From Blasia pusilla (taxonomy: Eukaryota), in contig CM114271.1 of assembly GCA_050084515.1 (NCBI GenBank), positions 34,100,001 to 34,164,000 of the forward strand: a DNA stretch of 64,000 bases, read 5' to 3'. Shown piece by piece: positions 19,349 through 55,947 of this stretch. A program made the translations under genes and the position numbers. The notes under the pieces were generated by a model, which saw only the letters and a list, made by a program, of their open reading frames with translations, made no database searches and was not told the DNA's origin. Position 1 is the first letter of the stretch. Each line of letters begins with the position of its first letter.

Positions 19349-19882
19349 TCTCAACTTATCGTCTTCAAGCGATAGTTCTTCTTCAACCTCTTGAAGAACC
19401 CTTGGCACTCCTGACCGATGGTGGGGCACTAGTACCTCCACTCAGTACTCCCAGGTTCCAAGAACCCCCAATCCTTCTCTGAATCATTTTCAATCGGGTG
19501 GGGACATAGTAGGAGCACTACTTCCATGACAATGGGTGATAACTGAGACCAATATTGTCTCTTGAATCTCAGCAACATGGTCCTTCCTAAACTCATGGTT
19601 CGCAATGGGTGGTCCCTCAAGTCTTCCAAACAATACCAAGCCAAGAAGGGTGTAAAAATTTGGCGTTGACTGCATATCACACCCTCTCAAACCTGAATAA
19701 AGTCCTCCAACTCAATGGTGCCCACTTCGAGTATATGTGGGCCCTTCATGGCCCCATGGTCCAAATACCAAATCAATGGAGCTTGCAAAGTAGCGGCTGA
19801 ATCGTGTTTGGAACATCCTTTTCCTCCTCTTCATCAACCTTCGGAAGTGGAAAAGGTAGCCGATACCTCAATCCACTCCTTG
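19349..19882 (-). mobile_element. gag fragment of the family-1 element embedded in family-2 pol
   Basis: RSGLRYRLPFPLPKVDEEE, CDMQ, LEGPPIANHEFRKDHVAEI and FFKRLKK match 36062-36670 closely at DNA level. Confidence 0.8.
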
Positions 19883-26627: not shown

Positions 26628-27839
26628 ATGTCCACTGTATTGCTCATGATACCCATATTATAGGTCCTCTATCTCAAGTGGTTCCTACTTATACCCATTT
26701 TGTGGAGCAATCCTCTAGCTTAAAGCTTAAAGTCCAGCCTAGTAAATGTTTGGTATGGGCTTCTTTATGCCTTCCCTAAATATTCATCATGCCTATTCTT
26801 GATTTTACCGTCTACATTAAATGGGTTTGGATTCTTGGGGTCCCAATTGGTTTCATCGACTATATATTCAAGTTCTTGGATGAAGCCCTAAGATTTAGAA
26901 AGATGTAGAATGGCTTCATTTGTTATCTCATCAATAGGATTCCCAAGTGGCTTATGGGATTCTCTGCTAATATTTTATGATGTCCCTCCTACCTTCTTTG
27001 CACTTGTCCTTCCACTTTAGAGTTCTTATATTGGTTGGCCTCTTTTGACACTTATATCATGGCAACTTTCGATCAATTTCTCGGTCCAAATACATTTGAG
27101 GGAAATTACGATGTTTTGGTTTCACAAAAATCTATCTTGCCTATTTATTTTGGAGGGTTGGGGCTTTCCTTCACGGTTGCATTGGGTCTAGCAGCTTTTC
27201 TAGGGAGTTAGGCTTTAAGTGCCCTCATTTTTACTTCAAGGTTTCTCTAAGGAGATGCATTTATTGTGATGGATCATGTTGCTCATATAGTGTAGGGCAA
27301 TGAACAAGGAGATCCGGGGTTTAGAGTATTCGTAGCCGGCAGTTTTTTGGAATTTCCTTCCCTGCTCGAGAGAGGCCGGCTGAGATTCCGGCGCATTTGA
27401 CTGAGTTTTCGGAAGATGGCAGAGCGGATTCGGTGTAGCCAAAAACTCCCCGGGAATCGCAGAGGCTTGACTGGGATTACACCTGCGACAGGAGGAGACA
27501 CCGGAATTTGACCGATATTATATTACGGGCTGACGAAATGCTATTGGAATAGTTTTTGACAATTGGAAAATTGATGAGTTGTGATTGGAGGGTAGATGGA
27601 GGGACGGATATGCACTCCAACGTGTTTTCAAATCCTGGCCGCACAGTAGAGGGTTTTACAAAACTCTGTAAGGTGCCCCAAAATCAGCCGCACCCTAAAA
27701 CCTTCAGGCTGCCCCTCTAAAACCGTTCGATGCTTTGGAGTCTCATCCGACAATATTGAGCAAACCCCGGGTGGGACGGACTCTACGGAGTGAGGCGCGG
27801 ACAGAGGTGAGAGGGTGGGGGGTATATCTCTCCATGGCT

Positions 27840-28330
27840 CATTGTACGATTTTGCCCGCAGCTGCCCTGTTGTGCCCTCCTCTATGCCGCGGCTCTGCAT
27901 TTAGCGATCTTGCCCGTTGTGGCTCATTGTGTGATTTTTCCCGCTACTGCTATGCTCTACTCTACTCTATGCCGCGGCTCTGTGTCGAGTGCTTTTGCTT
28001 CCTGTTGCACCTTTGATAGTTGTTGTGCCCTTGCTCACTATTGCGCCCTTGCCCGCTGCTGCACTTTTGCTCGCTGTTGCGCCATTGTGCGCTCTTGCTC
28101 TTGCTCGCTGTTGCGCTGTTGTGCGCTGTTGTGCGCTCTTGCTCTTGCTCGCTGTTGCGCTATTGTGCGCTCCTGCTCGCTGCTGCGTTTTCGGCTCAGC
28201 AAGAGCAAGAGATTTGTGCGCTCTGCTTGCTTGCTATTGTCACTGCGTTCTTGCCCACTTAGGATGCTCTTGCCCAATATTGTGTGCTCTTGCTCACTGA
28301 TGCGCTCTTTCCTGCTATTGTGTACTCTTT
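27840..28330. repeat. Degenerate short tandem repeats (TGCGCTCTTGCTCTTGCTCGCTGT-like) in the hAT 5' subterminal region
   Basis: Repeated GCTCTT/GCGC/GCTGTT units directly visible. They produce the Cys/Ala/Leu-rich spurious ORFs in the ORF track. Confidence 0.7.
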
Positions 28331-32697: not shown

Positions 32698-33747
32698 TCT
32701 ATATTATTAAAATAGGACGGGGTTTGATGTCTTAGCCTTAGGACACGTGAGGGGGAGGGGTATTCAAGTAGTAAGCCTGTTTGAATTTTATTATTTAAAC
32801 CACACTAGATGGGTAGAAATATTTCAAGTAGAAAAAATCAAAGGATTTTAATAAATAGAAAAATATATTGTATAAGTATTAATAATTTTTTAATATTATA
32901 CTGGTGGGATTATAAATATTAATAGAATGGAATATTTTGGATTAAAAAATTTTATAATTTTTTCTTAATTCACATGTGATGGAAAGGGAAAATTTTAATG
33001 GATAAGGAATAGATCAAATTTCATGGAAGGTTAAAATTATTTAGAGGATTAGGATATCATTTAAATTTGAATGGAGTACTGTACTTACTTAAAAGGGTGA
33101 AATTTTACTATTCTTCTAAGATTTTAGAAAATAATAACTATATTAAAAATTTTAAATAATTTATTTTATTATTTAAAATTAATCGTATAGTTCACATGTG
33201 ATATTTTGGGAAAAGAAAGTAAATCTGAATGGAAAAGGAAAATAATTTAATAAAAAAAAAAAATTTTTTAGTAAATGTGATTCTGGTAGAAAGAGTGGAA
33301 GGGGATGAATCATTTTTGTTTGAACTTTTAGGGAGAAATGTAATTATTTAGGGGAGATGGATATCATTTAAAGGTGATTTTCTTACTCTTCTAAGATTTA
33401 TAAGAGTGGAAATTACACCTAAATTTTGAAATGAAATATATTAAAAAAAATTAACATAATTTTTTGAAAATGTCATCGACATCTGTTTATAAGCTATTCT
33501 ATTGAGAAAACTATGCTAGGCTTGCATGGCACGGGCAACATCTACATTCTTATGGGAGAGTGCCTTCTTGATTTGCAAACACCTCACCTCTCTGTTTGAC
33601 ACCTGAAAATGTGTCTCCTTATGCACGCAGCGTTAAAAAAATTTGAATTTGTGTGTTGCATCATTAATCCCTTCCATTTACAAATAATACACTAAAAAAA
33701 ATTTCAAATTTTTTTTATTCCTGTCCATCACATGAGCACCTTACTAG
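32698..33747 (+). mobile_element. Possible non-autonomous Helitron
   Basis: A|TCTATATTATTAAAAT 5' end at 32698, AT-rich body, decayed GC hairpin GCTTGCATGGCACGGGC (~33520-33536), and CTAG|T at 33744-33748. The hairpin-to-end spacing is too long unless there is a secondary insert. Confidence 0.35.
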
Positions 33748-34131
33748 TTTTTTCAAATAAGGGTATTTCAAATCATATTCTCAATAATTGTGTCCAACTC
33801 ACTTTACAAAACCTACTTATGTTACAAAGTCCAAATTCATGGACATATCCTATTCCATGCGAGGAAAAATATAATAATTTTCTTTGTTGCCCCATTCAAG
33901 TTTAGGTTTGAAGATCTATGGTTTATAGTCTAAGGTGATAAACGTATTTTGCATCTCTAGTCCAAAAGTACTTGAATTTACCACATTTAGCAAAATTGGT
34001 GATTTTCTTTGAGCCAAAAAATCCAACAGTAATTGGGAATATTTCGAGATCAAATTTCCATCGTGGAAATTTTGAGATTTTCTTCATTTCAAAAATTCCG
34101 AATATAATATTTATATTATAATTCCTTATAT

Positions 34132-34499
34132 TGTCATGACCATACGGATTATGTCGTAGAGTACAGTGTGTTAGTAGAGGCCATTCCTTATGTAGGACCG
34201 TAGTGGCTTGGTAGAGATGCGGTTTCATACATAGGGTTGGGGGTTACTCAATTGGGGGTGACTTTCCCAATAGGGCCCGCTCTTAGGTTGGAGGATATAA
34301 GGTGGAGTGCACTCAAAGAACAGTCAGTTCTTTGAGTTGAGCCTGTTGCGTTGGGAGTTAGCCTTGGTAGTGAGTAGAGCTCTTGGCTATAGTGTTTCCC
34401 GCAAGCTTCGACTTAGATTCTCCCATCATGGAGTGGGTTTGGCTCGATTGTATGTGATTCTATACGTGTTTTATGACAGTAGGTCTTTCACGGATTTCA
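34132..34499 (+). repeat. Repeat A1 (368 bp; distal U3-R-U5 part of the LTR)
   Basis: Matches 43477-43844 with 9 substitutions by manual alignment. Contains TATAA at 34296 and Inr-like TCAGT at 34324-34328. Confidence 0.95.
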
Positions 34500-34509
34500 C
34501 TCAAAGAAC
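34499..34509 (+). promoter_or_regulatory. Self-priming primer-binding site (Tf1-like)
   Basis: ACTCAAAGAAC at the LTR end is the exact complement of GTTCTTTGAGT (34327-34337) at the predicted transcript 5' end. There is no TGG tRNA-type PBS. Confidence 0.75.
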
Positions 34510-35961
34510 AGGAGTAGATCGATGGTAGTTTCGATTGTGGTTCAATAGGATCTGGTTAGGGCTGATTGTGTACTCAGCCGTGGATGTTCGTGGCTTATGG
34601 CCTATGTTGGAGGTATGAATCTGGTGCGTGGTAGGGTTGCGAAAGAAGCGCCTTGCTGAGAGCTTTCCAACGCGCTTTAGATCGCCGGATTTTGTCAAGG
34701 GAGTTGGAAGTTATCAAGGATTGAAGATTCTGGTTCGTGTTCGACGGTTTTTTGATGTGGAGAGCTTGGAGTGCGGAAGCTCTGTTGAAGTTCATCCAGA
34801 TCGGGTGAGAGGTTCCTATTGCTACTTGTATTGTAATCTCATGTGAAGCTATCTGCTTGAGTGTGTGGAGTGTTGCGGATTTCTGCGTGCATGAAACTTG
34901 GCGGAAGCGCTGTCGGATTTGCGATTCTGGAGGTGTATGGACAGCAAGTTTGTCTGTGTTGTAGCTGTTTTTTGTGGAGAGATAGCTATGGTGGTCAATT
35001 GAATTCTGGTCAAAACAGATTTGATTTTGGTCACGGATTTGTGAAGTAATTGGTGATCGAAATTTTGCGGACTAGCTCAAGGTCCGGCTATGGTGGACAG
35101 CGGATCGGAGGGGCTGGTTGGTTAGTGACTCGTTCATTGTTGGAGACTCCTATCCCGTTGGGGGCGCGCTGGTTGGGCCTCTCTCCATAGCGAAAATGGC
35201 GAAGCGTGGCGATAGGGGCATGTCTCGAGCATTTCTCGGCGTTTTGAGGCTTCGAGGCAACTTGTGGTAACTCGGGGCGAGTGGGCGTGAGAGTCGGAGT
35301 AAGGAGCAAGGAGCAAGCAAGCAAGCTTGCTTGCTTGGGCGTGAGGCAATTTTTGCAGGATTTGTGATTTGAGTGTTGCATAACTGGTCACCTATCTTTG
35401 GGCTATTCTTCTTGGAGGACGCTTAGCTGCTGAGTTCTTAACTATGCCAGTGTACACACTGTTGTATCTCATTTGGTGCTGTTCGGAGATGTGTTAGGCG
35501 CTTTATGCATCTCAGGTTTTTGGTTGATGTACCTCTAGCACATAGTACAGTGTAGCCTCTCCATGCAGGTGATATTTTCAGGTGTTGCGAGTTCGACTAG
35601 CACGTTATCGACCCGCGGCGGAGTAGCTATTGCGTTAGAATTGTGTGGTGGGTTTTGTGGATTCAAGGGGCACCACGTTTGGTGGATTATGTTACCTTGA
35701 TTTCCATTTGCGATTGGAGGGTTGTCGTTGGACTTCCTGTGTTTGGATCCCCTCCATCGTTGCTTCTTGCTTGCGCGCCCATTGTTAGGGTTGACGTTGA
35801 TTTCCAAAGTAGTCTTACTCTTGTGTGCTATCGATAGTGAGGTTGGAGTGATAACCAATAGACCGTGGGAGGCTTCTTGTGGTGATGAAAGTTAGTTTGC
35901 CTACACCCATAGCTAGTAGAGCTAGAATAGTATAGCGACATCGACGTCACTTGGTTACTTA

Positions 35962-37540
35962 ATGGTGGTAATTTGGTGGTGGTGCGGCATCGGCGTTGGT
36001 CATCACGGAGTTGTCGGGTGGTCTGGTTGGGGACCGTGGTGCGGACAGTGGTGGTTTCACACGGAGTGGATTTAGGTATCGGCTACCTTTTCCACTTCCG
36101 ACGGTTGATGAAGAGGAGGACGAGGGTGTTCCAAACACCGAGTCTTCTACATTGTTATCGAGTGTTGGAGCTCCATTGATTTGGGACATGGACGGGATAT
36201 ATGGGGCCATGAAGGGCCCACGAAGATACTCGGGTGCAGTGGGCACCATTGAGTTGGAGGACTTCATGCACGAGTTTGATACGTGGTGTGATATGCAAAT
36301 GTTGGGGAACGCCACGTTGTTTACACCCTTCTTGGCTTGGAAGGGGTTGTTTCAGCACTTGGAAGGACCACCCATGGATGATAACCATGAGTTTAGGAAG
36401 GACCATGTTGCTGAGATTGAGGCGTGGAGACAATATTGGTCTCCAGGCTATGTGTCTATCACCCATGGTGGTATTGGTAGTAGTGCTCCTACTATGCCAG
36501 CCAGCCCGATGTTGAGTGGTACGAGTACGAGCCGGAGTGGGGGTACCAGTGGAGGTACCCATGGAGGTACTAGTGGGGGTACTAGTGCCCCACCATCGTT
36601 CAGCCCGGTGGCAGAGTTCTTCAAGAGGTTGAAGAAAACTATCAGGGAGTGAAGACAGAAAAGTTGAGGAGTCTTTAGGAATTTGAGCGAAAGACTGGTG
36701 AGAGTCTTCGTGAGGCATACACTCGTATGCAACGTTTGATTTTAGTTACCCAGAGTGTGACTGAGGCTCAGGCAATCCTGTTTTGGTATGGGATCTTGGA
36801 CAAAGATTTGCGCCGTAGGGTACGTGATGTTACTCTTATGAGTGATGATTCACCCACATTGACCCATGTGTTTGCTCTATTTGAGAAGATTGAGCTTAAC
36901 ATGGTGAAGGAGAGAATGGTGACATCCGGCATTCAGTAGGGATACAACTACTACTTCTCGTGTTCAACAGCCCACCTCACAGTCTCGTAATAGTGGTGGT
37001 GGTAGTAGTAGTGGGAGTCGTGGGGGGTACACACGACCTCAGTCAGGTCCAAGAGGGACACTTGCGCAGAGACCATTGCCTTCATTTGCTGCCCGCAGAA
37101 GGGCGATCATGTTGGACATGTGGAGGTGATCATGTTAGGAAGTTTTGTCCCCAAGAGGATGGGAGACGGACTTTGGAGGATGGGCCTCAGTTGGCCCCAA
37201 CTCAGTGTGATCATTGCGGGAGACCAGGTCATCCTCGAGAGCGTTGCTTTGATCTTCATCCAGAGTTGAGATCAGGCCGCGGCCGTGGTGGAGTAGCTCC
37301 GAGAGGCCGAGGTGGTAAAGGTGGTAGGGGTGGTAGAGGTGGACCGGTGGTTGAGAGCCTCACGGTGGCTACCCCTACCACTACGACAGAGTCAGCTATG
37401 GTCGCAGGATTGAGTGATTGGAGCGGAAGTTGGCTACTATGGTCGGGTATCCAACATAGATCAGGTTCAGGAGCAAGGGCTTTCACCTCTTATGGAGGGG
37501 ATGATCTCTCTTATATGGCGAGTGCAAAAGACAAAGGTTG
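35962..37540 (+). pseudogene. gag (capsid-like region, CCHC zinc knuckles, RGG tract), frameshifted
   Basis: PRRYSGAVGTIELEDFMHEFDTWC, CWTCGGDHVRKFC, CDHCGRPGHPRERC, GRGGKGGRGGRGG. Confidence 0.8.
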
Positions 37541-38010
37541 AGGCATCACTGCGATTCTGAGAGGAGCCACTCAAGCGTCGAGCCACGTGGTGCTCTTGTG
37601 GAGTTGGACCCACAGAGGGGTGAGGCGGGAGGCGAGGCTAGGCTTCCCAGTCATTCTTGTTGTCCGAGGTGCTTAGGACTCCATCCATGGTTCCCCACGC
37701 ACCCTATTGAGCCGCAGTGGGGACCGAGGCATCTACATCGCATGTAGTAGACACGGATGCAAAGATCCATCGGCAAGATTATGTGCGGATGGCAACTTCA
37801 GCGTTGGGATCCCCATTATTTTCGCCACGGAGTCGATGGCTTTAGGAGTTGACTTAGCTCTCAGTATTTCAGCTAGCACCACATTGTATGAACGTGGGGT
37901 GTTATTCGCTACACGTGCTCGAGGTGGATGAGGGTGTTGCGGTGGAGCGACCCTCTATGTCAGGTGTAGTATTGAGTACCAGTGCTACTTGACAGGCAAC
38001 AGCGGCGAAG

Positions 38011-38520
38011 ATGGATGCATTACCAGCCCGGCCAGCCATTGATCGTGAGAGGCTTACACTTGGTGTATGTATGTTGGACAAATGGAGTGGGATATTCCGA
38101 TTTGTGAGTCCTACAGGACAGGTGTATAGACCAGATAGAGTCTTGTTAGACTCTGGTGCCCAACCTTTGATGTTGGGAAAGGCGGCATGTATTGGTTTGG
38201 GTATTTGGAGGTCAGAGCTTGAGCCTTGCCCATTCCAGATTCAAACATTACTTGGAGGAGCCAATGATAGATCTCAATTCATGACATGGGAGAAGTTTTC
38301 TGTACAGTTGAGACCAGATCATGCGACTAATAGCTCCCGGTTGGGAGTATCTTCGGTAGTCACATCAGCCGAGTCGTATGATGTACTAGTTGGAGGAGCA
38401 GTATTGTACCCGATGGGTTTTCATATGGATTACTGGACTGAGACAGCGTCTTATAGACCTGGTTGGCAGTCCGGGGATGGACGTATGAGCCAAGTTCCTG
38501 TGAGATTTATTTATGGGGCT
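38011..38520 (+). pseudogene. Retroviral-type aspartic protease domain
   Basis: RVLLDSGAQPLMLG ... YDVLVG (D-S-G active site and D-x-L-x-G motif). Confidence 0.8.
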
Positions 38521-38874
38521 CAACCAGGAGGGTCTTCCCCAAGAGTGTTAGCATCTGTGGCTGGTTTTAGTGGAGTAGTCACTTGGCCAGGAGACTTTTT
38601 GGAGGGTAATGTTTCTGCTATGGATTCTCCTACGCATGAGGAGGTAAAGGAGGTCCCTATTTTTGCAGCCGTGGCATCCTCATCGTTGGATGTGCCACTT
38701 TGGAGTTCAGGCGGTGCACTACGGCAGGAGGCTGATCGCCTAGTGCAGAAGGCTTGGTGTGAGGCTGTTATACCTCACGAGGAAGAGGAGGCCCCACGGC
38801 GGACTCCAACTTCTGGTCCAGTTGGGTTATCCCCTTTGGATACTACACCCATTCTATGGCAGTATCCGCTGGAG

Positions 38875-39830
38875 GGCATTTGTGTGTTAGATCTCTTTGG
38901 TGGGATTAGCACTGGTTTGGCTGCAGTGTTGGAGGCCGATATTCCTGTGCGGAGATACGTGTATGTGGAGCGAGATGAGACGTCCCAGAGAGTCTCATCC
39001 CGACATATTGGTCAGTTGATGCGGAGATATCCTGAGTTGTTGCCGCCATCAGCTATTCGTGGGTACCAAAGTGCTTTGCCATCACACATTGCATTTTTTG
39101 GGGGCGCAGGACCTTGAGAGGGTTGGTCTGTGGATTTGGTGATTGTTGGATGGCCATGTCAGGATCATACACGTGCAGGTCGTGGTGAGGGATTACACGA
39201 CCCTAGGTCTCGATTGTTTTGGGAGATGTTACGGATGTTACGACATCTTCAGGTTCATTAGGCACGTGCTCCAGCTTACATTCTGGAGAATGTTCCATTG
39301 TTGGGTGACACTCGGACCCGGATGATGGCGAGTGTTCATGAGGTGCGGTCTTGGATTGGACCAGCGGTGTTGTTGGATGCAGCGCGAGTTGGCTCGCGTG
39401 CACATCGTCCACGCTTGTGGTGGACAAACTTGTTGCCTAGGGAGGTTCTACGTCGACCATATGATGCAGTGCAGCGGGATCCTTGCCTTACCGTGGATAG
39501 TATCTTGGATACTGGGCGACTTTCTCAAGTGGTGAGGGTTATTGATTAGTCACCCATGGCAGTGGTGAACCGTGTGGGCCAGCCTAGGATGGCACTACCC
39601 ACATTTGTGAGTTTTCCCTCGTCACATGCCTACAGGGAAGGTGGTCCGGGGCTTGTATGGGATTCTCATGCGGCGATTGGTGGAGCCTAACGCTGATGAG
39701 AAAGAGCGTGCGATGGGATTTGCTACTGGTGTGACAGTGGTTGCTTCTATTTCTGAGGCTTCACGACGTCATGTGTTGGGTCAGGCCATGGACCTGAATT
39801 GTTTGACTTGGATTTTGAGTCTTGGTATGG
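38875..39830 (+). pseudogene. C5-cytosine DNA methyltransferase (DNMT) domain inside pol
   Basis: Motif I VLDLFGGISTG (38884), II YVYVERDE, IV DLVIVGWPCQD (PCQ 39154-39162), VI ILENVP (ENV 39286-39294), VIII AHRPRLWWTN, IX ERAMGF and X LGQAMDLN, in canonical order. Disrupted by stops (39115, 39259, ~39547) and frameshifts. Confidence 0.92.
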
Positions 39831-40209
39831 CCGAGCAACGTCGACTTCGGACTACGTCTGTGGGTCTTCCACCCCTTGTAATGAGCTCGATGGCTATTGG
39901 GACGGTAGAGGCATCGGCTGGGGGCGAGGAGAATAGTATTTTGCATCCTTGGAGTAAATGGGATGTAATGGCTGGGCATGTGGAGTTGGTTGCTCATGTT
40001 GGTGGAGGAGTTATTTGCTCAGATGATGGTGTAGCTAAGGGTGTACCATCTTGTGAGGGGGTTATGAGTGACCAATGGCATCATCCTCTCCCTCTAGTGT
40101 GCCAGTGGAGGAGACTTGGGAGCCATTACTTGGGCCCAAGCTTACGGGAGGTGAGAAACGACGCTTGACATAGTTCCTACGTGCTTATAGGAGTTGTTTT
40201 GCCTTTTGC

Positions 40210-41560
40210 ATGAAGGAGTTGGGTTCTCTGGTTGGACCCGGTATACGGATTGATTTGGCTAGTGATACGCCAATCTTCCGTCGTCCCTACCGATATAGTG
40301 ATATGGAGAGGGACCTGATTCATAGTAGGACGTTGGACCTTTTGGAGGCTGGATTAGTGGAGTTGTCGCATGAAGAGTATGCATCGCCCATGTATCATGT
40401 CATGCTCGCTAAAAAGGATATGCATGGCAACTACACGGATAGGCGGATGTGTGGAGATTATCGTCCTATCAATCGGCAAACCAAGGCCGATAGGTATGCC
40501 ATGCCTACACCGAGGAGATCTTTGATGTGGTGGGACAGCAAAGATTTTCAGTACTTTGGATCTTCAGCAGGATATCATCAATTGCCGATTTGGGAGAGTG
40601 ACAAGGCCAAGACAGCATTTTGGGGTGTCAACTCTCATGGCAAGGATTGTTTGTACCAGTGGAAATTCTTACCCTTTGGGTTGAAGAATGCATCTTCCGA
40701 GTTTCAGAGAGTGATGGACAGGATCCTAGGAGGGTTGGATTTTGTTCGGTGTTACATTGATGATATCTTGGTGTTCAGTAACACGGTGGAGGAGCATCAG
40801 ATACATTTGCAGATGGTGTTTGAGCGGTTGAAAGCTCATGGTCTACGTTTGCATCCAGGAAAGTGTAAGTTCTTCCATGAGGATGTTGAGCACTTGGGTC
40901 ATGTGATCTATCCAGGTGGTTTGGGAGTTCAGCAAGCAAAGGTGGAGGCTATTGCACTTATTCCGCATCCGATAGATGTGAGTAGAGTTTGGGCATTCAT
41001 GGGATTGGCGAACTACTATCGGAGGTATGTGAAGGGATTTAGTGCTATGGCAAAGCCTTTGAACCAATTGCTGAAATCAGATCAAGAGTGGCACTGGGGA
41101 GATGATCAAGAGAGAGCTTTTGTGGAGCTTAAGGCCCAATTGGTGGCGGCGCCTATCTTGAGGAGACCTATCGAGGCGCCCATTTAGTTACACACTGATT
41201 GGACTACGTTGGGACTTGGAGCGGTGTTGACACAACATGATGATGAGCACATGGAGTTTGTGGTGGCCTATGCAAGTTGTTCGAATAATGCAGCGGAGTC
41301 GCGCTATAGTTCATATGACGGAGAGTGCTTGGCAGTAGTGTGGGCTGTGGCACACTTTAGGTGTTACTTGTTTGGCACATAGTTTACCCTTGTTACTGAT
41401 CACCAGCTGCTCAAGTGGTTGATGGAGTCTGACAAGCTTACAGGGGAAGCTTGCACGGTGGCTCTCTTATCTTACAGAGTATGACTTCCGGGTGGTACAT
41501 AGACCTGGAGTTGCCAACCTTGATGCTGATGGGTTGAGTAGGAACCCATGTACTAGCCAA
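40210..41560 (+). pseudogene. Reverse transcriptase + RNase H (Ty3 type)
   Basis: RMCGDYRPIN, LPFGLKNA, CYIDDILVFS (YIDD 40753-40764), HTDWTTLGLGAVL, TDHQLLKWL, NLDADGLSR. Confidence 0.95.
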
Positions 41561-41899
41561 GAGGATACAACTGGGGCTAGATGGCATGGCAAGGTTGATG
41601 AGGAGATGGTGCCAGGTTGGTATGCATCCGCCTTTTTATGTTGGTTAGGGGTGGACTCTAGTATGGAGGATCACATGATATCTTACTCTAGTCAGAGGGT
41701 AGATGGCCACCCTTCAAATCCTAAGGTTGGAGATGGTGGTAGGGATCAGCGTGATATTCATGATGATGCGTTGGTGTTGGAGTTCCTACGGACCAGTAGG
41801 GTGCCATGCATAGTGAGTGCCAAGGAGCGAGACCGTGTTCTTCAACGTGCTAAGAGGTATCGATTGGAGGGAACACATATTCTCCGCGTGTGGGAGGAT

Positions 41900-43030
41900 G
41901 GTAGAGTACGAGTAGTGCCACATTTGACTCAGAGAGAGCGCATTGTGCGACATGCCCATGAGGAGTTGGGACATTTTGGGGTAAAGCGTATGTATAGCTT
42001 ACTCCTTGGCCAGTATTGGTGGCGTGGCATGCATTCTCAGGTGCAGCAGTTGATGTCACGTTATATGGTTTGTGATCGGGTGAGGGCATCATTCAATGCC
42101 CCTACACCACAATTACACCCCTCGCCTATTATGGGGTTGAGTTATCGTTGGAGTGTGGACTTTGCGGGACCGTTACCGTTGACTGCACGACATCATCGAT
42201 ATGTGTTGGTGATGGTGGAGCACTTCTCCAAGTAGATTGAGTTGGTGGCATTACCGGACAAGGCAAGTGAGGGAACGGCGTATGCGTTTCTTGATAGAGT
42301 ACTTAGTCATTTTGGTGCACCAGCTGAAGTGTTGACCGACCAGGGTACAGAGTTTCAGGGTGAGTTTCATGTCTTGTGTAACAAGACGTTCATTGATCAT
42401 CGGACCACATCTCGAGATCATCCAGAGGCAGATGGTTTGGCTGAGCGTGTGGTTTAGACGGTGAAGAGGGCATTGCGCAAGTATGGCCTATAGAAGGGGC
42501 ATCTTGGAGACTAGGATATTCAGTTGCCATGGTTAGTCATGGGGTATAGGTTTAGTCGCCAAGCATCCTTGGCTTCCTTCTCACCTTATTTTCTGTTATA
42601 CGGCCGAGATCCAGACTTGCCAGCAGCAATTTGTCGGGAGTCTAGTGAGGTGGTGATCCTTGATGACCCAGAGATGTGGATGAGGATGTATTCTCAGCGG
42701 GCGGAGCTCTTTCGGAGAGTTATGCCAACAGCCTTTGAGAATCTTGCCATTGCTCAACACAGGGATACGTTGCGATATGCAACCATTCGGGGTGGAGATT
42801 ATCGACCATCGATTCGTAGGTTCCATGTGGGGGACTATGTCTATTTGCAGCAAATTGCACCGACAACATTGGATGTGACGGCAGGCCGCACTATTTTACG
42901 AGTGTGCAAGGTGTTAGCTTCTGGAGTTCTCATGTTGGAGGGTCGTGATGGAGTTGTTTGGAAGGACCATGTGCGTAATTGTGCGTCATGTCATCTTCCA
43001 AATGTGGATGGTATTGTTGACCCAAGCTTA
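41900..43030 (+). pseudogene. DDE integrase (HHCC zinc finger + rve core)
   Basis: HEELGHFG...YWW...CDR, WSVDFAGPLP (~42150), VLTDQGTEFQG (~42330), HPEADGLAER (~42420), SPYFLLYGR. Confidence 0.92.
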
Positions 43031-43054
43031 GTCATGATACGTGCTAGCTTGAGG

Positions 43055-43195
43055 TGCATGTTGTGTGGGTCTACTGGTAACGCAGCCCGTATGTTGGTGT
43101 GTGATCGGTGTTCTAGGGGTTGGCACATGATGTGTTTGACTCCACGTATGGATGTTGTTCCTACTGGAAGGTGGGTTTTTCCTCGATGTACTTAG
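43055..43195 (+). pseudogene. PHD finger at the integrase C-terminus
   Basis: CMLC...MLVCDRCSRGWHMMCLTP...GRWVFPRC is a C4HC3 pattern with one Cys mutated to Phe. Confidence 0.9.
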
Positions 43196-43358
43196 GAGAG
43201 GTAGATGACTTGATCTTTGCATGATATGGATTACAGATGTGCGACTAACAATGGGGCAACCTAGCACCCGACCTTCTGATTCGGGCACCCAAGAAGGTGT
43301 ATAGCATGTAGTAGATGTATAGGGCTACCTAGGAGTTAGAGAGACCTAACCGCCAGTT

Positions 43359-43369
43359 AGGGGGGCGAG
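43359..43369 (+). promoter_or_regulatory. Polypurine tract
   Basis: AGGGGGGCGAG immediately before B1 (TGTGG at 43371). Confidence 0.8.
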
Positions 43370-43370
43370 T

Positions 43371-43844
43371 TGTGGTACACTTGTGTTTGTGGATGTTCTC
43401 GTCTATGTTATGTATGTATGTGAGTATGGTATGTCAACGATGTATGTTGTATGACGATGTGGATTCGCACGACAGCTGTCATGACCATACGGATTATGTC
43501 GTAGAGTATAGTGTGCTAGTAGAGGCCATTCCTTATGTAGGACCGTAGTGGCTTGGTAGAGATGCGGTTTCATACATATGGTTGGGGGTTACTCAGTTGG
43601 GGGTGACTTTCCCAATAGGGCCCGCTCTTAGGTTGGAGGATATAAGGTGGAGGGCACTCAAAGAACAGTCAGTTCTTTGAGTTGAGCCTGTTGCGTTGGG
43701 AGTTAGCCTTGGTAGTGAGTAGAGCTCTTGGCTATGGTGTTTCCCGCAAGCTTCGACATAGATTCTCCCATCGTGGAGTGGGTTTGGCTCGATTGTATGT
43801 GATTCTATACGTGTTTTATGATAGTAGGTCTTTCACGGATTTCA
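43371..43844 (+). repeat. Complete LTR unit B1-GC-A2 (474 bp, TG...CA)
   Basis: Begins right after the PPT and ends at the same CA that precedes the PBS in A1. Contains the internal palindrome GACAGCTGTC at 43471-43480. Confidence 0.9.
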
Positions 43845-43846
43845 GT

Positions 43847-43950
43847 TGTGGTACACTTGTGTTTGTGGATGCTCTCGTCTATGTTATGTATGTATATGAG
43901 TATGGTATGTCAGCGATGTATGTTGTATGACGATGTGGATTCGCACGACA
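43847..43950 (+). repeat. Repeat B2 (104 bp), right terminus
   Basis: Matches B1 43371-43474 with 3 substitutions. Joined to A2 by CA-GT-TG. Confidence 0.95.
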
Positions 43951-46900
43951 ATACTTTTTCTTATTTGAAAACAATATTCATAACATATGGCTTTCATGGA
44001 GATAAACTTGTATGAATTGGTCTTATTTTTTGCATTAGTAATTTCATTTCATTAATAAAAATTTATAATATATTAAATAAGGAAATATTTTTATTTTCCT
44101 TAAGATTATGTATATGATTGTAGAAAATAGGCATAAACCTGAAAATGTAAATTTTTTACTTAGATTTCTTATTTCTATTTTTTAATTCTAGTAAAATCAA
44201 AGGCATTGATGTCCCGTTTACATATTAATTTTTTAGCATGGTTGATTTTTTAAATTATAAAAAAAATCAATCAATATTTCTAGAATTTTAAGAAATAACT
44301 CCAAATCTAGGAAATAAAAATATATCTTACTATTCCTATATGAAATTTTACTTCTTTTCATAACTATTCCCTCTTCTTTTAATATTAAAATAAATGAGAC
44401 TTGTGAATGTTTCATATATTTTGACCTTATCATTTGCAACTTAGTAAGTAATAATGGAAAAACCATCTCTCAAAATAATTTTTGAAATAAGTACAAAAAT
44501 GCAATATGGGGAGTTGGAGAAGATCCTATATATTAGCAAAAACAATTATTAGAATATTTTGAAAGAAATAATTTACAAAATTAAATTGGAAATAATCTCT
44601 ATTATGGTGACTAAATTTTGAGAGAAGCTTAGGGTAAGATTGGAGTGGCAAGGATGATTAATGGAAATTTCATGCAGATACTTGGTCAAAGTCTATGACC
44701 ACAAAAAATTTCATGTAAGACCTTACCCATTGTCATTATCATAGAAAGTAGGTTGTGTTTAATATGGATTAGCTTATTCATGTTTCTTTATGAATTTGGA
44801 AGACTTGGAAATAATTTCATCAACTATTTTCCAAAGTTTTAATGATATGCAAATCATTGATCTAAAATAAGAAGGGATGATATAGCTATAATACATATCG
44901 GTGAACAACCCACACCTTGCACAAGGATAAATCATTCTTCACAAAAATTAAAAAAGAAAATATCCTTTCATTCAAGTAATGATAATATAGATTCTTCTAT
45001 TGCATCCTCTTATTCCATCTTTTTACATGTAGAGAGGTTCTTCATATACATATTAAAAATTGTGGAAATTTACTTCCCGTTGGACCAAAATTCAATCTTT
45101 ACGGCCCCGACGATAATTCCCTTTTTTTCCCTGTCCATCTGGTCTATCCACATGTCCTCTATACTTGTTCACTAATTACTTCCTCTCCCACCCCTCTCAA
45201 GGAACCCCATACTGGTTTTACGTAATAACAAAAATTGAATTATAATTATTCTTTTCCTAAAAACTTTCATTCATCAAAGATTTATTTTGGTTATCATGTT
45301 TTCATGCAAGTGGATGAGCGTGACATATTAACCCACATACAAAGGTCTAGAGAGGAAAAAGTAATAACTAGATTGGAGATACATAAGTGCCATGAGGAGA
45401 TGTTAAACCTTCTCTTGTTTGCTTCGTAGTTGTTCTTAAGTGCTCCACAACACAACTAGAATTGATGAATTATCATCGCCTCCCACCTAGTTTAAGAGAT
45501 GCATCTCAAGTCTTTTCTGATAGTCCATATTCTTAAAATATATTGCGTTCCACCAATTTAATTTGGATCTTTATGTCGTAATCAACCGTGTTGCTTGCAC
45601 CTTTCAGAGCGTCGGGAATGGGGGTCGGAAAAGTTTAGGGTGAGGAAAAAATTACGGGTCATATATAAACTCTTGGATTTCCCAGTGGAAATTAAAAATA
45701 CGCCGACCGGCTTATTAACCGGCGGCTCTAAAATAACCAGTGAATCCACGTCAGTGAATAATACTGAATATGCGCACTGCAGTTGCCCTCCAAGGACTCG
45801 GGAGAATCGAAGGTCCGGAAACGCGGTCCTCCGACGTTCATCGAACGGTCCAGATTACGCGATGGGCGGACGCTCTGGTCTATGAATCTAGGAAGAAAAG
45901 AGGTAGTAAGACTCAAGCGTTCGAAAACTGCTACCGAGCAGCCGCCGGCTTCCCATTGGTAGCTAGGCCTGTTAAAGTTAGCGTGTACGGTAGAAGCGTC
46001 CACGTGGATTACCACACGGCGCAGGAACGACTGTCGCCCGCCCACGCACGCAGTTACCGGTCCGCGCAATCACGACCGCGAGTCCGAGGCCACGAAGAAG
46101 CTGGTGGTCCCGGTCCGGCCTCCTGCCACATAGTCATGACTCCGCTTGCCACGTCCCGACTCCCGGTCCCTCGAGCCTTCACAGCCGTAGGCGTCCCCGT
46201 CAAGTTGTCTAGTACGCAGAGTTGTCCGCCGAAATTGAGGCCGCGCTCTGCCGCCATTCCCCATCAACTGGATCGGAATCCACCTCCACGCAACAACAAC
46301 GATTTCGAGAACCGGCTTTGTTTTGATTCATTGTTTGGCGTGTCTGTGAATCTCTCTCTCTCTCTATCTCGCTCTGGGAGACCGATTCTGGTGAGGCGGG
46401 AGGAGTTTCAAGAGGAAAGGAGAGAGCCAGAGAGAGAGAGAGCTATACAACGATTGAAAAGTGTGTAAGCCGCCGGAGATCGGTTGCTTGATTGCGTGTA
46501 GGATCGTCGATTCGGCGGCGGGCTGCTGCGGTTGATGATCTTTTCTGCGTCTGTGGCCTGCGGTGGTGGGATTCAAGCGTGAACGGTTGGAATCCCGAAA
46601 GGTGAGGGGGGGAGACGAGCAGCGGCGGAAGTGGTGGTAGAACTGAGAGAGGGAGCGGGAAGAAAACAATCTCAGATTTGTCTGGTTCAACACAGTCGGG
46701 ATTTGGTCAATTCGGAAAAGTTGCCCACACACGCTCCCTTGGAGTAGATTGTCCGCCCCCTCCACGGTGCCTTCCCACTCACGGTGGTCCACCGATAGAC
46801 TGGTCCCCTGCGTCCTCTCGTTGGAGAAGTCTTTAACTCAGAGGGCATGTAGATAGGCGATTAATTGTACTGTCTCCCTCCAGACACAATCAGACGGAGA

Positions 46901-50492: not shown

Positions 50493-51187
50493 TATTGTGC
50501 ACATTCACTTCGCTACACAACCCAGATTGCTAGTCATATCTACACAAAATCGATCTTCCCAACACACGGGTAGATCCACATACATACAAAAATGAACTCA
50601 TGCATGTACACCAAAACCACACAACAAAATCAACGTAAAAATGGCTCACACAGCCAAGTGCACTCTCGAATCTACACATCATATTAAGCCATATCCACCC
50701 TCCACTATATGGGAATCCAGATTCTAGCACCCTAGTTCCTACCAAACACTAAGCAAGATAGATGATCTAAAGGCTCAATATGAGAACGATTGCTTTTGAA
50801 AGCCTAATCTTCCTCTCTTATACCGTTGGGAAGATGTAGAAGCTTTTCCCCAAAAAATAGCCATCCAAATGGTAACATGCGTGCACAGGTTATTGGGTGA
50901 TCCTTAACTTGGTCAAAAAGTTACCAAACCAAAAATAGCAAAAGAGGGCATTTTTCATAAACGATGATTCCAATGCAACAGACCTGTCGTCAACCTCATC
51001 TGAAACTTCACGACATAGTTACACTTGAAAATCCCGTTGATCCCCTATATTAGTTGACACGGTAGAACTCTATCTGTCAACTAACTAAGATGTGACAGTT
51101 GTCATGCACATACATATCACTACATAATCCAAATCGCTAGTCACATCCACAAAATGCACAACAATGATCTTCCCAACACATAGGTAG
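50493..51187 (-). mobile_element. B-A-B type 3' end of another, older split-LTR element
   Basis: Degenerate direct repeat 50493-~50573 vs 51100-51187 (shared GCTAGTCA and GATCTTCCCAACACA..GGTAG). Junction GACA-GT-TGTC at 51094-51103. Confidence 0.55.

Positions 51188-51515: not shown

Positions 51516-51519
<4 letters not shown>

Positions 51520-51610
<91 letters not shown>
51520..51610. repeat. (GA)~45 microsatellite
   Basis: Direct observation. Confidence 0.98.
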
Positions 51611-51611
<1 letters not shown>

Positions 51612-51649: not shown

Positions 51650-54600
51650 TTGGAGAAAAGCGTATTATCGGCGACCCGGCTAGAGCGGTCGTGGCTATGG
51701 ACACTCCTCTCCATAGAAATTTCACGAATGGGAGCATCCTCTGCATGGACATGTCTCTCAATCAAATCACTAGGCCAAGTGATGGCACTGCTAAATGCTG
51801 CTAAGGTTGCCATCTCTCCTGGACGTCGCTCGATCACTGCACATGTGAATCGAACGGGTAATGATCTAAGGCGCCCATCTCCTGACTCCCATCCTGGTCT
51901 GTCGAACGCTCACTTCTCCCTGTAATCTAGGGAAAACCCCATCGGATATAACATTGCTCCACCAACCAAGACGTCGTAGGACTCTGCATCAGTCACTATC
52001 GCCTTGGCTCGCACCACAGACTCATCTGTAGGATGTCCTAGGCGAATCCTCACTACAACCTCCTGTCGGGTGATATACTGTGTGGTACTCGCTCCACCCA
52101 AGGATGTCTGTATCCGAAATGGACAATGCTCCACATCAACTCTTGTCAAGCCCAATCCTCTCCATGATGCTTTCCCCAACATCAGGGGTTGCGCTCCTGA
52201 ATCCAAAAAGACATGTTGCAGACTAAAAGCTCTATCTCCTAGACTCACAAACTGGAAGACCTCTCCCCAATTATCCAGCAACACAACACTAGGAGAAGCC
52301 ATGGCACGCTCTATCGCGGGTCTAGCGGGCATCTCCGCTATCCTACCAGCCGCAGCCTGCCATGAATCTGATGTGGACGGCCTGAGCATCCGCTCCAAGG
52401 GCAGGTCATTCACATCCTCTGCAATCACCTCTGAACGTGATGTAGGAACTCCAACTCCACACTCACATAGCATAGCGGCCAGCCAGAAAATCTATACAAG
52501 AGTATCTCCCAACATCATAACATTGGAAGCAGTAAACAACGGAGCACGATACACCATCATGGCCGCCCCCAACATCGTACTCGACATATCCTCCTCTTGA
52601 GCATCAGCAATAGGAGTCATCGCACTCGCTTCTCCCATCATCCTCCGTACCTGCACACCAATAACATCACCAACTCTCCAGGAACTCTCATCAGGACCCA
52701 TCGATGCGGTCCTCAAGTAGCCTCGTCTGTTTCCTGGCTTCCCCTCGCTGTGGATCCAACTCTACGGCTGCTCCACGCGTCATAATTGCGGCAGCCTCCA
52801 TCTGGGAAATCCCACACATCCAACCAAGATCCTCCACATCTCTGGCTGCTCCATATGATGTCGATGCCACGGATCCAGCATCGGCTAACCTCAATGCCAT
52901 AGCGGCAATCTGCTCTTGTAACTGCTGTATCTGAGCAGCCATCCCAGCCTCACGCTCGGCTGAGGTCTCTGTGGCACGGCCTTTTGGTATTCTCCTTGAG
53001 CTCGTGGTGCCACAATTGACCTATCTCGGAGTCCACGTTGTTGCACTGGTGGTGTTGCCATGCCTCAATCTCCTGGGCATATCTGTGGGAGAACTCATGG
53101 TAATCGTCCATGGGTGCCTCCTCTAAATGCTAGAACATACCGTTCCATGTTGTAAATGGGTTGAACTCTCTAGAGTTCCTAGCCCCTTGTGAGTCGCACC
53201 AACTCCTAAACTCCCCAATGAAGTCGTGTAGCTCTATAGTGCCTATAGCACCCGAAAACCTATGTGGTCCTCTACCCGGGTCGTCCATCTTGTATGCCCA
53301 ACTGGTAGGACCACTCAATGTGTACGGTGGATCACTAACACACTCCTCTACACGCTCCCCCTCATCAGAAGACGACATAGAAGGAGATCGAAGTGGTCTC
53401 TCACGTGGAGACCCTTGAAACCTCGCACCACTCCGAGTAAACCCTCTAGAGCTACTCTCAAGTCCACTACCTCGCCTCCCAAAATCCCGAAAGGATGCCG
53501 TGATGGCCCTCGTGCCCCTCTCACACGATCACTCTCAATCTCGCAAGTCATCCCTCAATCACTAAAACTAAACATGTGGCACTCAATGTACACTCTCTCA
53601 TTGAGACGTGTGTTGTGCGGCAACAAGCAGCGCAGTCCGGAAAATCAACTGATCTATCGTCTCATTGACAAACCATCCCCAACTCTGGACATCCCACACA
53701 AGTCTATGTCCCCTAAACCCATACATCATCGATGCTCTCAGCATCAACACAAAACCCAATATCCCAAATAACTTCCCAATATCCAAAAATCCCTCACACG
53801 TGCAGGGTAAGAGACCAAAATGGGTAACCTGACAATAAATGTCGATGCGCTCCCCGGCAACTGCAAATATCGACCCCAACTTGGTGGTGAAGAGAACTCC
53901 TCCAATCAGCAAGTTGTACTCCTCTCATACTGACGCCGCTCAAACCTCCTCAATATGCGATGCAGGTCCAGCCCTCCGGTGCGGCACTGGCGGCACGGAA
54001 AGGCTACAAACGGTACGACACTCGGGAATGGGATGCGGAACTTGGCAGCATACCCTCCTCAATCAGAAATTCACACGCTCTGCTCCTTAGTGAAGGAGCG
54101 GCTCCGCTCGGTTCGGCCACGAGCGGCACGACGCGGAAATTGGCGTCGCGTTGCGGCTACATGCGTCACGGCACGGTACTCGATCGTCGCAACATAGCAG
54201 CATGAAATAAAAACTCAAACACCATAACCTGAGGTCACGTGCCATCATTGGTTGATGACAAAACTGCGATGACGGTGGCAACCAAAACAAAGTACGTGAT
54301 GGTGGCGCAAGTCAGAGAATCAACAGTCATCGTGGAAGACCCTTCACTCCGTAATGGCGGCAATGCCAACCTAGGGTGGAAAACGGCCGAACGTGGCTCT
54401 AAGCAGCGCTAGGCGGCGGCGGCGGCCGACGGTGGATGGTGGACGATGACGGTTGATCATTGATGGTGATGTCGGACCATTGACAGTGACGGTTGACCAT
54501 CGATTATGATGGTTGATGGTGACTATGACGACGACGGCCGGCGGCGGCACGACAGCTGGTTTAGGGTTTGAACAATTTAACCCTAAAAATCGCCTAACAA

Positions 54601-55947
54601 TAGTAATTTTGCCAGATTGACCATAACTTTTTGCTCGCAACTCTAAATTGCACACCGTCTATTGCACACGCGTACAACTTCACGATCTACAACGACATCA
54701 AAAAATATTTTCACGGTTGACCATCGATTGTGATGGTTGATGGTGAATATGACGGCGACAGCCGAAGGCGGCGCGGCGGCTGGTTTAGGGTTTGAACAAT
54801 TTAACCCTAAAAATCGCCTAACAATGGCAATTTTGCAAGATTGACCATAAGTTTTTGCTCGCAACTCTAAATTTCACACCATCTATTGCACATGTGTACA
54901 ACTTCACGATCTACGACGACATCAAAAAATATTTTGAATCGAACATTCCAATAAAAAGTGAGGGGGATTGTTGTACAGCCCAATGTCTCTTTCTCCTACA
55001 CAAAATTCGGCAGCGCTTCCGCGCTGATTTCTCCCAAAAAAATGTAAAACCTATGAGAACACAAATCAACATGCTACATGGTACTCCCGAGAGCACTCGC
55101 ATGGAGCAACCCGCCCCCATACTCAATTCCTATCAAAAATTGGGCAGCGCTTCCGCGTGCCACTCTCCCGTACAAAAAATCAGCAAAGAAAAACAGCAAA
55201 CTCGCACGACTCTTGCTCCGGTGAGCACTCCCATGAGCCATAAAGCGGGGAACACTGTCCCCCAACCTGCACCGAACATCGAGCAACGAGCGAGCTCCCC
55301 CATGAAGCTCTCTCACGCAGTCATTCTCTCTTTGTAAAATAAGATCCAATCTTGCTCACAACATCATACTTCTCACATGTGTGCACTCTCACATGTCTCT
55401 CTTAATGTCAAACCAAACCCACTCTCTTGATGAAAGGCTTGGGTTACACTCACAAGGAAAGGGACCATAGCTCTGCCGCCTCGTGCCAAGAGGTTCAACA
55501 AAGAGAGAATGAGCTCTCAAGCTCTCTCTCCTTGAGGTATACCCCTCCCCTCTCCCAAGCTCTCTCCATGGTAACCTATGCTCCTAAGTCACCTTCTTGG
55601 CTCTTGACTTGATGTAGGAGGTCAAAGACCACTTACCAAAACTAGAAAGTCGACCATATACTCAAAATGGTACTTGCCTAAAATAGTAGGTTCCTCAATA
55701 TGGCTCTAAATGAGCAGAAACGAAGGGGAAACATGCTCTCTCAGGTTTCCCGAGGCCTTAGTAGGTCATCCTCAACCTCCTGAGTTTGTCTTCCACTACT
55801 CGTGAAGGCGCTCTACTTGATCTCATCGATCTATCCTAAAAGACGTGATATCTAATCAATCTTCATGAGAGCTCTACATGCAAGTAAGCACCTTCTCCAC
55901 TTAAAACCCCATTTTCTCGATAAATTAAAAGGCTTTCATAGATGACA
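51650..55947 (-). mobile_element. 5' half of a third Ty3-type relative (LTR A, leader, internally deleted gag, protease), truncated just before the DNMT position
   Basis: GPHRFSGAIGTIELHDFIGEFRSWCD, VELDPQRGEA, HVFLDSGAQPLMLGKA, AESYDVLVGGAMLYPMGF and AAFSSAITWPSDL are all homologous to family 1. The LTR-like segment 55333-55947 starts TGTCA and ends TTACA on the minus strand, and shares GAGTGGGTTTGG with repeat A. Confidence 0.8.
54489..54935. repeat. Two tandem ~224-bp units containing TTTAGGG...CCCTAAA
   Basis: Units start ACGGTTGACCATCGATT at 54489 and 54713 and are highly similar throughout. Confidence 0.9.

Follow-up and report, generated by a model that had tools for sequence, protein, structure and literature searches.

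A Ty3/Gypsy-type retrotransposon with split direct repeats in Blasia pusilla, whose integrase may insert joined complementary DNA at a palindrome inside the long terminal repeat

Introduction

The DNA studied here is a 64,000-nucleotide stretch of Blasia pusilla (GenBank assembly GCA_050084515.1, contig CM114271.1, positions 34,100,001 to 34,164,000 of the forward strand), and the term window denotes this whole stretch. Positions 34132-43950 of the window hold a long terminal repeat (LTR) retrotransposon, which codes on the plus strand in the order gag, protease, C5-DNA methyltransferase, reverse transcriptase, RNase H, DDE integrase and PHD finger. From left to right the insertion reads A1, internal region, B1, GC, A2, GT and B2, where A and B are two parts of one LTR. 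It is a dead copy, with broken frames and repeat pairs that are 2.4-2.9% diverged. In textbook LTR retrotransposons and retroviruses, linear complementary DNA (cDNA) is inserted by its tips, and circles are treated as dead ends. In this study, we estimate at about 0.65 the probability that the window holds a decayed copy of a high-copy Ty3/Gypsy-type element of the Gypsy-DNMT3 group, whose integrase inserts joined cDNA at a palindrome inside the LTR.

Results

Organization of the insertion

The A and B repeats were mapped by repeat finding, by direct reading and with a script. As shown in Table 1, the LTR set by the primer-binding site (PBS) and the polypurine tract (PPT) is B-GC-A, and the integrated element begins and ends with one half each of a palindrome inside this LTR. 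The palindrome lies at the B1/A2 joint, where the sequence reads GACAGCTGTC and is perfect. The insertion starts with TGTC on the left, next to the flank ...TTATAT, and ends with GACA on the right, next to the flank ATACTT. A1 is directly followed by CTCAAAGAACAGG. The A2/B2 joint reads TTTCA-GT-TGTGG, and the same GT precedes B1 after the PPT. A1 and A2 differ at 9 of 368 positions, and B1 and B2 at 3 of 104. A script search of the window found no further copies of A or B, and no paralogous empty site for the insertion flanks was found within the window. An earlier note on this DNA had given the span of the insertion and of its B-GC-A LTR, the joints, the counts of differences and the ATAT/ATAC flanks, and all of them were reproduced by the repeat and sequence check. 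The element is strongly strand-asymmetric within 34001-44000 (GC skew +0.22 to +0.28, AT skew down to -0.22), and its flanks are AT-rich (GC 0.31-0.33).

Coding content

A Pfam scan was performed over 127 six-frame open reading frames (ORFs) of at least 40 amino acids from the window copy. Both the translations and the Pfam matches showed that the coding region is broken over many frames. PF00078, PF17919/PF17917, PF17921 and PF00665 stand in Ty3/Gypsy pol order in the window copy and in L039, a better preserved relative. The RNase H is of the Gypsy type (PF17919/PF17917). The H2C2 domain of the integrase (PF17921) was matched with E 4.5e-13 and the terminal PHD finger with E 2e-8. The rve core (PF00665) of the window copy had E 9.2e-7 and 29.5 bits, under the cut-off of 32.6 because the fragment is short; in L039 it scored 48.1 bits, above the cut-off. 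The DDE motifs WSVDFAG, LTDQGTEF and DGLAERVV are legible in the window copy and in most relatives, and in the relative P0033 K replaces E. The closest solved integrase structure, with the core of P0033 as query, was that of Ty3 (7q5b, E 2.9e-13). A tyrosine recombinase (Phage_integrase) was found in none of the 127 ORFs of the window copy at E<=1 and in none of the 49 ORFs of L039. The earlier note had seen only a DDE integrase in this element, in agreement with the motifs and with the empty recombinase search.

The methyltransferase was matched by PF00145 at 39118-39258 (E 1.7e-8), with its DLFGGISTG and ENV motifs nearby. A scan of 12 large ORFs at E<=0.01 had overlooked both the methyltransferase and the rve core, which were recovered by the search of the 127 fragments. 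PF00145 is present in relatives, L039 included, and so is Asp_protease_2. The gag-like region had no Pfam match in the scans of the 12 large ORFs or of the 127 ORFs. Its second ORF contains two CCHC-type knuckles, of which CDHCGRPGHPRERC is a canonical CX2CX4HX4C, and the relative P0001 is annotated in its source as a 'CCHC-type domain' protein. Among named proteins, the nearest are hypothetical ones from Marchantia polymorpha, Calypogeia fissa and Sphagnum fallax, and these share the domains of the element. The structure of the element as given in the earlier note stood. Three features had been overlooked there, namely the methyltransferase, the terminal PHD finger and the putative self-priming site described below.

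Table 1. Features of the insertion and its borders, in window coordinates
Feature	Position	Strand	Basis or remark
Left target-site duplication, ATAT	34128..34131	.	three of four bases same as ATAC on the right
A1, LTR 3' part (remaining U3, then R and U5), starts TGTCATG	34132..34499	+	repeat comparison
Inverted repeat inside A	34311..34337	+	right arm 34325-34336, CAGTTCTTTGAG, complementary to PBS
PBS, CTCAAAGAAC(A)G, directly after A1	34500..34511	+	not tRNA-like, no TGG
Gag-like region (ORFs 35972-36652 and 36900-37541)	35972..37541	+	translations
Protease (DSG) and C5 cytosine DNA methyltransferase, three frames	37993..39549	+	LLDSGAQ, DLFGGISTG and ENV motifs
Reverse transcriptase and RNase H	40174..41379	+	PF00078, E 1.8e-24; PF17919/PF17917, E ~1e-18
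Integrase (H2C2 zinc domain, DDE core, C-terminal part) and PHD finger, three frames	41423..43195	+	Pfam, motifs
PPT, AGGGGGGCGAG (43359-43369), plus T	43359..43370	+	final GT recurs at A2/B2
B1, 5' part of the LTR (start of U3), ends CACGACA	43371..43474	+	repeat comparison
Palindromic attachment site GACA-GC-TGTC at the B1/A2 joint	43471..43480	.	halves are the ends of the integrated element
GC spacer at the B1/A2 joint	43475-43476	.	sequence
A2	43477..43844	+	repeat comparison with A1
GT at the A2/B2 joint, U5 end to U3 start, two PPT-derived bases	43845..43846	+	sequence
B2, right end of the insertion, ...CACGACA	43847..43950	+	repeat comparison with B1
Right target-site duplication, ATAC	43951..43954	.	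sequence

Related loci

Related loci were retrieved from metagenomes by alignment of the integrase C-terminus and PHD finger. A relative is encoded by 407 of the 422 candidate stretches, and the best 80 were kept. These were analysed by self-comparison and by mapping of the A and B references. The same insertion was often assembled from several samples, and de-duplication was done by flank and by eye. A recognisable B stands right after the PPT in 60 of the 80 loci; most of the remaining 20 stop short of this point. In 26 of the 60, B is followed by the palindrome and A, and in 34 by unrelated, mutually different flank. After de-duplication, this amounted to 17 insertions with B-A versus 29 in which B meets the flank, that is, A-internal-B. 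The earlier note had expected most copies to be A-internal-B-A-B, and in the related loci this expectation failed, A-internal-B being the commoner form there. A-internal-B copies may be primary integration products or B1 x B2 deletions, two origins that look the same here. B2 is visible in 14 of the 17 B-A insertions; in L032 and L078 the contig stops too early to show it, and the third exception, L001, is a special case.

The complete A1-internal-B1-A2-B2 arrangement was found in four loci (L013, L021, L022 and L039), of which L022 and L039 are one insertion. This split direct repeat layout of PAT/Ngaro-type DIRS elements is therefore present both in the window copy and in its relatives. Fourteen loci show the 5' end and represent 10 distinct insertions, and in all 10 non-B sequence stands before A1. 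The conventional BA-internal-BA layout, which the earlier note had named among the findings that would speak against its proposal, was absent among the copies examined, with B before A1 in 0 of the 10 distinct 5' ends. The mirror form A-B-A-internal-B was likewise seen in 0 of the 10, four of which come from B-A-B copies.

Two candidates from these loci were set aside. A B-repeat match in L009 (66% identity over 921 nt) was judged spurious, and L009 was classed with the loci in which B meets the flank. An apparent solo A-x-B recombination product in L057 was rejected; it proved to be a paralogue of the 3' end of L063, truncated and continued by homologous flank. One unrelated repeat of about 650-800 nt has entered several copies, each time at another site: it lies within A2 in L037 (1241-2519) and L038, after the ORF in L049 (10672-11387), and internally in L054 (3485-4142). 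It is probably a small non-autonomous element that favours these retrotransposons.

Raw reads

Three contig sets and about one in every hundred raw whole-genome shotgun reads of run X24, which has the same organism label as the window, were mapped to 33500-44500. The X24 depth over the element was about 400-600 reads per direction (about 1000x in all), versus 0 in the right flank bin 44143-44500, and the family is therefore very abundant. In 478 X24 reads, unmatched, diverse AT-rich sequence stands exactly before the A start (43477; agreement 0.32), and in 380 it stands exactly behind the B end (43950; agreement 0.33). Loose ends at the B start or the A end were absent among the six X24 places listed, the smallest of which has 263 reads. 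The same architecture in independent assemblies and the same ends in raw reads show that the split repeat is neither a chance repeat nor an assembly artefact.

The remaining four places listed (37921, 39134, 41445 and 41945) have 263-435 reads with a consistent continuation (agreement 0.88-0.95), and joints that skip 87-89 nt are listed near them. The window copy has short segments unlike the bulk of the family, as seen from these consistent read breaks. The left flank (33500-34131) is covered by about 34 X24 reads per direction and the right flank bin by none, so the insertion site was apparently inside, or at the border of, another moderately repeated sequence. C>T (415 places) and G>A (471 places) predominate among the differences between family copies in X24, a pattern that methylated repeats would be expected to show.

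Target-site duplications

Both ends were available for nine insertions, and the 4 nt before TGTC were compared with the 4 nt after GACA; L005 was scored by eye. A perfect 4-bp duplication was found in six of the nine. Three of these are A-internal-B-A-B insertions, namely L021 (AAGG on both sides), L022, which is the same as L039 (CATA), and L013 (TCTC). The other three, L006 (ACTA), L048 (ATTA) and L049 (TGTG), are among the five testable A-internal-B insertions. In the controls, none of 72 cross-pairings matched, and the count was 0 at each of eight offsets. It is the A start and the B end, both internal to the LTR defined by PBS and PPT, that have the duplications beside them, and not the LTR tips. 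The TGTC/GACA ends with 4-bp duplications that the earlier note had predicted for other copies are thus seen in the reads and the related loci. Duplications of 4 bp around TG...CA ends are the signature of DDE integrases. According to PMC8969392, target-site duplications are absent in DIRS elements.

Attachment palindrome and A2/B2 joint

The spacer at the B-A joint is exactly 2 nt in all 26 related loci that have this joint, with GC in 14, AC in 5, AT in 4, GT in 2 and TC in 1. All of the variants except TC are transitions from GC. In a distant subfamily, which is 47-49% identical in the integrase-PHD part, B (ATACATGAG...) and A (TGTCATGCCC...) cannot be aligned with those of the window. This subfamily keeps CACGACA-GC-TGTCATG at the joint and ends with GACA against the flank. 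The joint reads CACGACA-GT-TGTCACG in the L043 subfamily and CACGTGACA-GC-TGTCACG in the L066 subfamily. The integrated element is thus bounded by a conserved inverted repeat, TGTC(A/G)TG. The cDNA tips predicted from reverse transcription vary between subfamilies, and that of the distant one (ATACATG...) does not start with TG. These sequence comparisons indicate that the attachment palindrome is conserved and that the cDNA tips are not.

We also compared the A2/B2 joint. Among independent insertions of the main subfamily, it is TTTCA-GT-TGTGG in the L022 group, L015 and L020, as in the window. The two bases are AT in L021 and (G/A)T in L014 and L024. L040 has TTTT-CGAAT-TGTGG, and in L013 and L018 the joint consists of TTTTC, a 17-nt filler that resembles nearby A sequence, and CGAGT, the last five PPT bases. 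In the distant subfamily there are zero extra bases in L067 and AT in L070 and L075. Thus the B1/A2 joint varies by substitution only, whereas the A2/B2 joint varies also by insertions and deletions and by PPT remnants of variable length. This difference from the template-copied B1/A2 joint argues that U5 is joined to U3 after reverse transcription, and it is the best evidence for such joining in our material. It suggests that the A2/B2 joint is newly made at each insertion.

An exact match to the attachment motif (GACAGTTGTCATG) also occurs at 51094-51106 of the window, followed by sequence faintly like the A start of the distant subfamily, and 614 nt upstream of it lies an 83-nt repeat (73%). 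Matches to the motif number 5 in the window versus 1.9 expected, and 6 of 100 shuffles reach 5. As a second attachment site, 51094-51106 was rejected; it has no similarity to any reference A or B and may be a very old relic or chance.

Putative self-priming site and locus L001

A tRNA-type PBS starts with TGG. After A1, a CTCAAAGAA-type motif was found in 12 of 14 rows (13 loci and the window) and was not found in L049 and L054. The PBS can pair with a stretch of A some 170 nt upstream, over 10 nt in the window copy. The reads have T at 34510, in 416 of 435 and 411 of 425 reads, versus the base of the window copy, and the match is therefore 12 nt. The complementarity is 11 nt in L005 and 14 nt in L021 and L045, and one position is changed on both sides between families, as a compensatory pair. 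In the comparison across loci, a complement to the PBS was not found in three loci and a PBS was not found in two. The right arm of the inverted repeat in A (34325-34336) is the candidate both for the self-primer and for the beginning of R, and reverse transcription may well be self-primed in the manner of Tf1.

L001 has an unusual 3' part. At 1282-1800 it contains a full A2 and then, directly, the reverse complement of A positions 180 to 1. The inverted stretch starts with a 14-mer identical to the PBS and ends with ...CATGACA beside the flank, and 8 of the 179 positions that can be aligned between the two A parts are different. The snap-back joint falls precisely on the PBS-complementary site in A, and this supports the complementary pair as real. 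L001 looks like a fossil of integrated snap-back plus-strand strong-stop DNA. Such DNA, ending in a copy of the PBS, would have folded onto the complementary site and been extended, and the product would have been cut at the attachment site re-created in the extension. L001 thus suggests that the integrase uses an attachment half-site wherever it is located, also on a molecule that is not circular.

Other features of the window

Fragments of another Gypsy-type element, in which protease, reverse transcriptase and RNase H are recognisable, lie on the minus strand at 16645-20534. The gag-like region of the element studied here has a 75% identical counterpart of 621 nt at 19346-19882, and no A or B repeats were found beside the fragments. 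The window further contains a long (GA)n microsatellite (51516-51611) and tandem duplications of 223 nt (54489-54935, 92%) and 85 nt (27835-28004, 73%).

Discussion

From the integrated copies we infer that the integrase cuts at the palindrome, that the cDNA is joined or circular at that time, and that reverse transcription is self-primed. Reverse transcription would yield an ordinary cDNA, [GT]B-GC-A-PBS-internal-PPT-B-GC-A. The integrase would ignore its tips and recognise both halves of CACGACA-GC-TGTCATG inside the LTR, nicking after CA on each strand of GACA-GC-TGTC. With the nicks 2 bp apart, each new end would have its CA-3'OH recessed under a 5' overhang of GC, the same geometry that normal processing gives a retroviral end. 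The ends would then be joined to target DNA by strand transfer at a 4-bp stagger, with loss of the GC. One cut in a cDNA with U5 joined to U3 would give A-internal-B-GC-A-GT-B, the form seen in the window, and the joined molecule would most simply be a 2-LTR circle. Only this form could be transcribed, from a start in A1 to an end in A2, into complete genomic RNA. The sterile A-internal-B form would arise from two cuts, from the opening of a 1-LTR circle, from the trimming of linear cDNA, or from a later B1 x B2 deletion. If the integrase is restricted to the templated internal site, a replication-competent insertion needs a cDNA whose ends have been joined first. Extended to the whole streptophyte Ty3/Gypsy lineage, the proposal would be that tip integration was given up, with an obligate intermediate of the 2-LTR-circle type and other products mostly sterile; we regard this extension as an even bet.

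Several points weigh against integration of a joined cDNA by this route. The circular or joined intermediate is deduced from integrated copies only. The window element is placed in the streptophyte Gypsy-DNMT3 group by its domains and repeat structure. The duplication is imperfect in three of the nine insertions, with ATAT/ATAC (three of four bases) in the window and GGTT/TGTT (three of four) and ATCA/AACC (two of four, no duplication) in the A-internal-B insertions L005 and L054. A-internal-B, the commonest form in the related loci, could not replicate under the proposed mechanism. The genome of the window may contain a minority of conventional copies, the reads having been judged among the matches listed. 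The predicted RNA fold of 34325-34530 (R-U5-PBS) was no better than shuffles (z -0.21), a result from a mutated copy that is uninformative either way. A weak point comes from the mirror form. A 2-LTR circle has two identical sites, and the other cut predicts A-GT-B-GC-A-internal-B, of which none was seen. This absence has a chance of about 1 in 16 if both cuts are equally likely, and it could instead reflect fast A x A deletion.

The same internal-site integrase could also work without a circle. In that case the right-end B would come from end-to-end template jumping of the reverse transcriptase or from concatemers, and the integrase would trim the linear molecule at internal attachment sites. 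We consider this route a serious rival, though the less probable one. The L001 snap-back extension, integrated after a cut at an attachment half-site, speaks for it, the abundant A-internal-B copies are what internal trimming of plain linear cDNA would be expected to leave, and the lack of mirror forms at the 10 distinct 5' ends fits an asymmetric process. The fillers and PPT remnants at the A2/B2 joint fit end ligation equally well and do not discriminate between the two routes. We know of no documented step in the replication of LTR elements in which the template jumps to the molecule's own other end. Where the earlier note had proposed integration of a 2-LTR circle, the ends at an internal site and the B-GC-A LTR held; its circle is a deduction, and L001 shows a substrate that is not circular.

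The A1-internal-B1-A2-B2 order is the hallmark of PAT/Ngaro elements as described in the text of PMC8969392, and on this ground a tyrosine recombinase, acting in trans or undetected, might recombine circular cDNA into the genome. This is very unlikely, given the empty Phage_integrase searches of the window copy and L039, the conserved DDE integrase, the TG...CA inverted-repeat ends and the 4-bp duplications, which that text describes as absent in DIRS. A conventional LTR element might instead have acquired the split form later, when it recombined with a neighbouring or tandem copy. Unequal recombination is known in LTR elements, and L054 lacks a duplication; however, an identical event would be needed in every examined copy of several subfamilies, and the 4-bp duplications sit at the permuted ends and not at the conventional tips, so that we give this account hardly any weight. 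That the window copy is a one-off rearrangement or an assembly error is the least credible of all, with nothing beyond the structural oddity in its favour and the same joints and ends in raw reads and in dozens of independently assembled contigs. We keep integration of joined cDNA at the internal palindrome as the preferred reading.

What this material offers is thousands of copies, in several bryophyte-type genomes, whose ends fall within the LTR and are flanked by the 4-bp duplications typical of an integrase. If the preferred reading is true, DDE integrases could evolve to use an internal, templated attachment site and a joined cDNA, and these elements would be a natural system for studying how integrases choose DNA ends. 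An annotation rule would also follow: LTR finders that expect identical terminal repeats would misplace the ends and miss the A-internal-B copies.

Permuted repeats in such an element have been reported before. The legend of Fig. 4c in de Mendoza et al. (2018, PMC5890265) gives KnitGypsy-Dnmt3 of Klebsormidium nitens a DIRS-type repeat structure with Gypsy domains. Like the window element, KnitGypsy-Dnmt3 combines a Gypsy pol and a C5 DNA methyltransferase with DIRS-like repeats; the relatives of the window element are in bryophytes (Marchantia, Calypogeia and Sphagnum). The text of that account, PDF supplements excepted, contains no target-site duplications, attachment palindrome, PHD finger or mechanism. 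A passage of a 2026 preprint mentions 'streptophytes (Gypsy-DNMT3)'. The earlier note knew of no description of such a pathway; permuted repeats in a methyltransferase-bearing Gypsy element were already in print in the 2018 legend (PMC5890265), given there without a mechanism, and the claim of complete novelty is therefore reduced. In the open-access literature, with subscription journals and Repbase reports outside the scope, no mechanism was found for split repeats in an integrase element. Nor did that literature, the 2018 PDF supplements aside, state 4-bp target-site duplications, an internal attachment palindrome, a variable A/B joint, an A-internal-B class or self-priming. New with respect to that literature are the bryophyte-type member, the 4-bp duplications, the conserved attachment palindrome, the variable joint, the A-internal-B form, the putative self-priming site and L001.

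DIRS elements of the PAT/Ngaro/TOC type have the same layout as the window element, formally a 2-LTR circle opened inside the LTR. They have a tyrosine recombinase and no target-site duplication, according to the text of PMC8969392, whereas the window element has a DDE integrase, a 4-bp duplication and TG...CA ends. The preferred reading, if true, would explain the DIRS-like look of Gypsy-DNMT3 elements, with an integrase element having converged on the DIRS architecture. With Ty3 and the chromoviruses the window element shares the reverse transcriptase-RNase H-integrase order, the H2C2 and DDE domains, the CCHC gag and the PPT. Those elements integrate linear cDNA by the LTR tips, giving LTR-internal-LTR, whereas the tips of the window element are not used; a DNA methyltransferase is added, and a PHD finger stands where chromoviruses have a chromodomain. 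Tf1/sushi elements prime themselves without a tRNA, their PBS pairing with the beginning of the RNA itself. In the window element the PBS directly after U5 is complementary to a site farther upstream in the LTR, which is a candidate for the transcript start.

The closest parallel for the proposed cut is found in retroviruses. Foamy-virus and HIV-1 integrases cleave palindromic LTR-LTR junctions, as reported in PMC1180852 and PMC1905944. There, as in our model, the substrate is a CA...TG palindrome on circular DNA, which a DDE integrase nicks on either strand. In foamy virus and HIV-1 the palindrome is made by ligation of the tips and belongs to a side path, whereas the palindrome of the window element is copied from the template as part of the LTR, its spacer is 2 nt, and it is apparently the sole site used. 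The spacer of the foamy-virus and HIV-1 LTR-LTR junction is four bases. If the preferred reading is true, the window element and its relatives would represent a natural, obligatory version of the long-discarded 'circle junction' route of integration.

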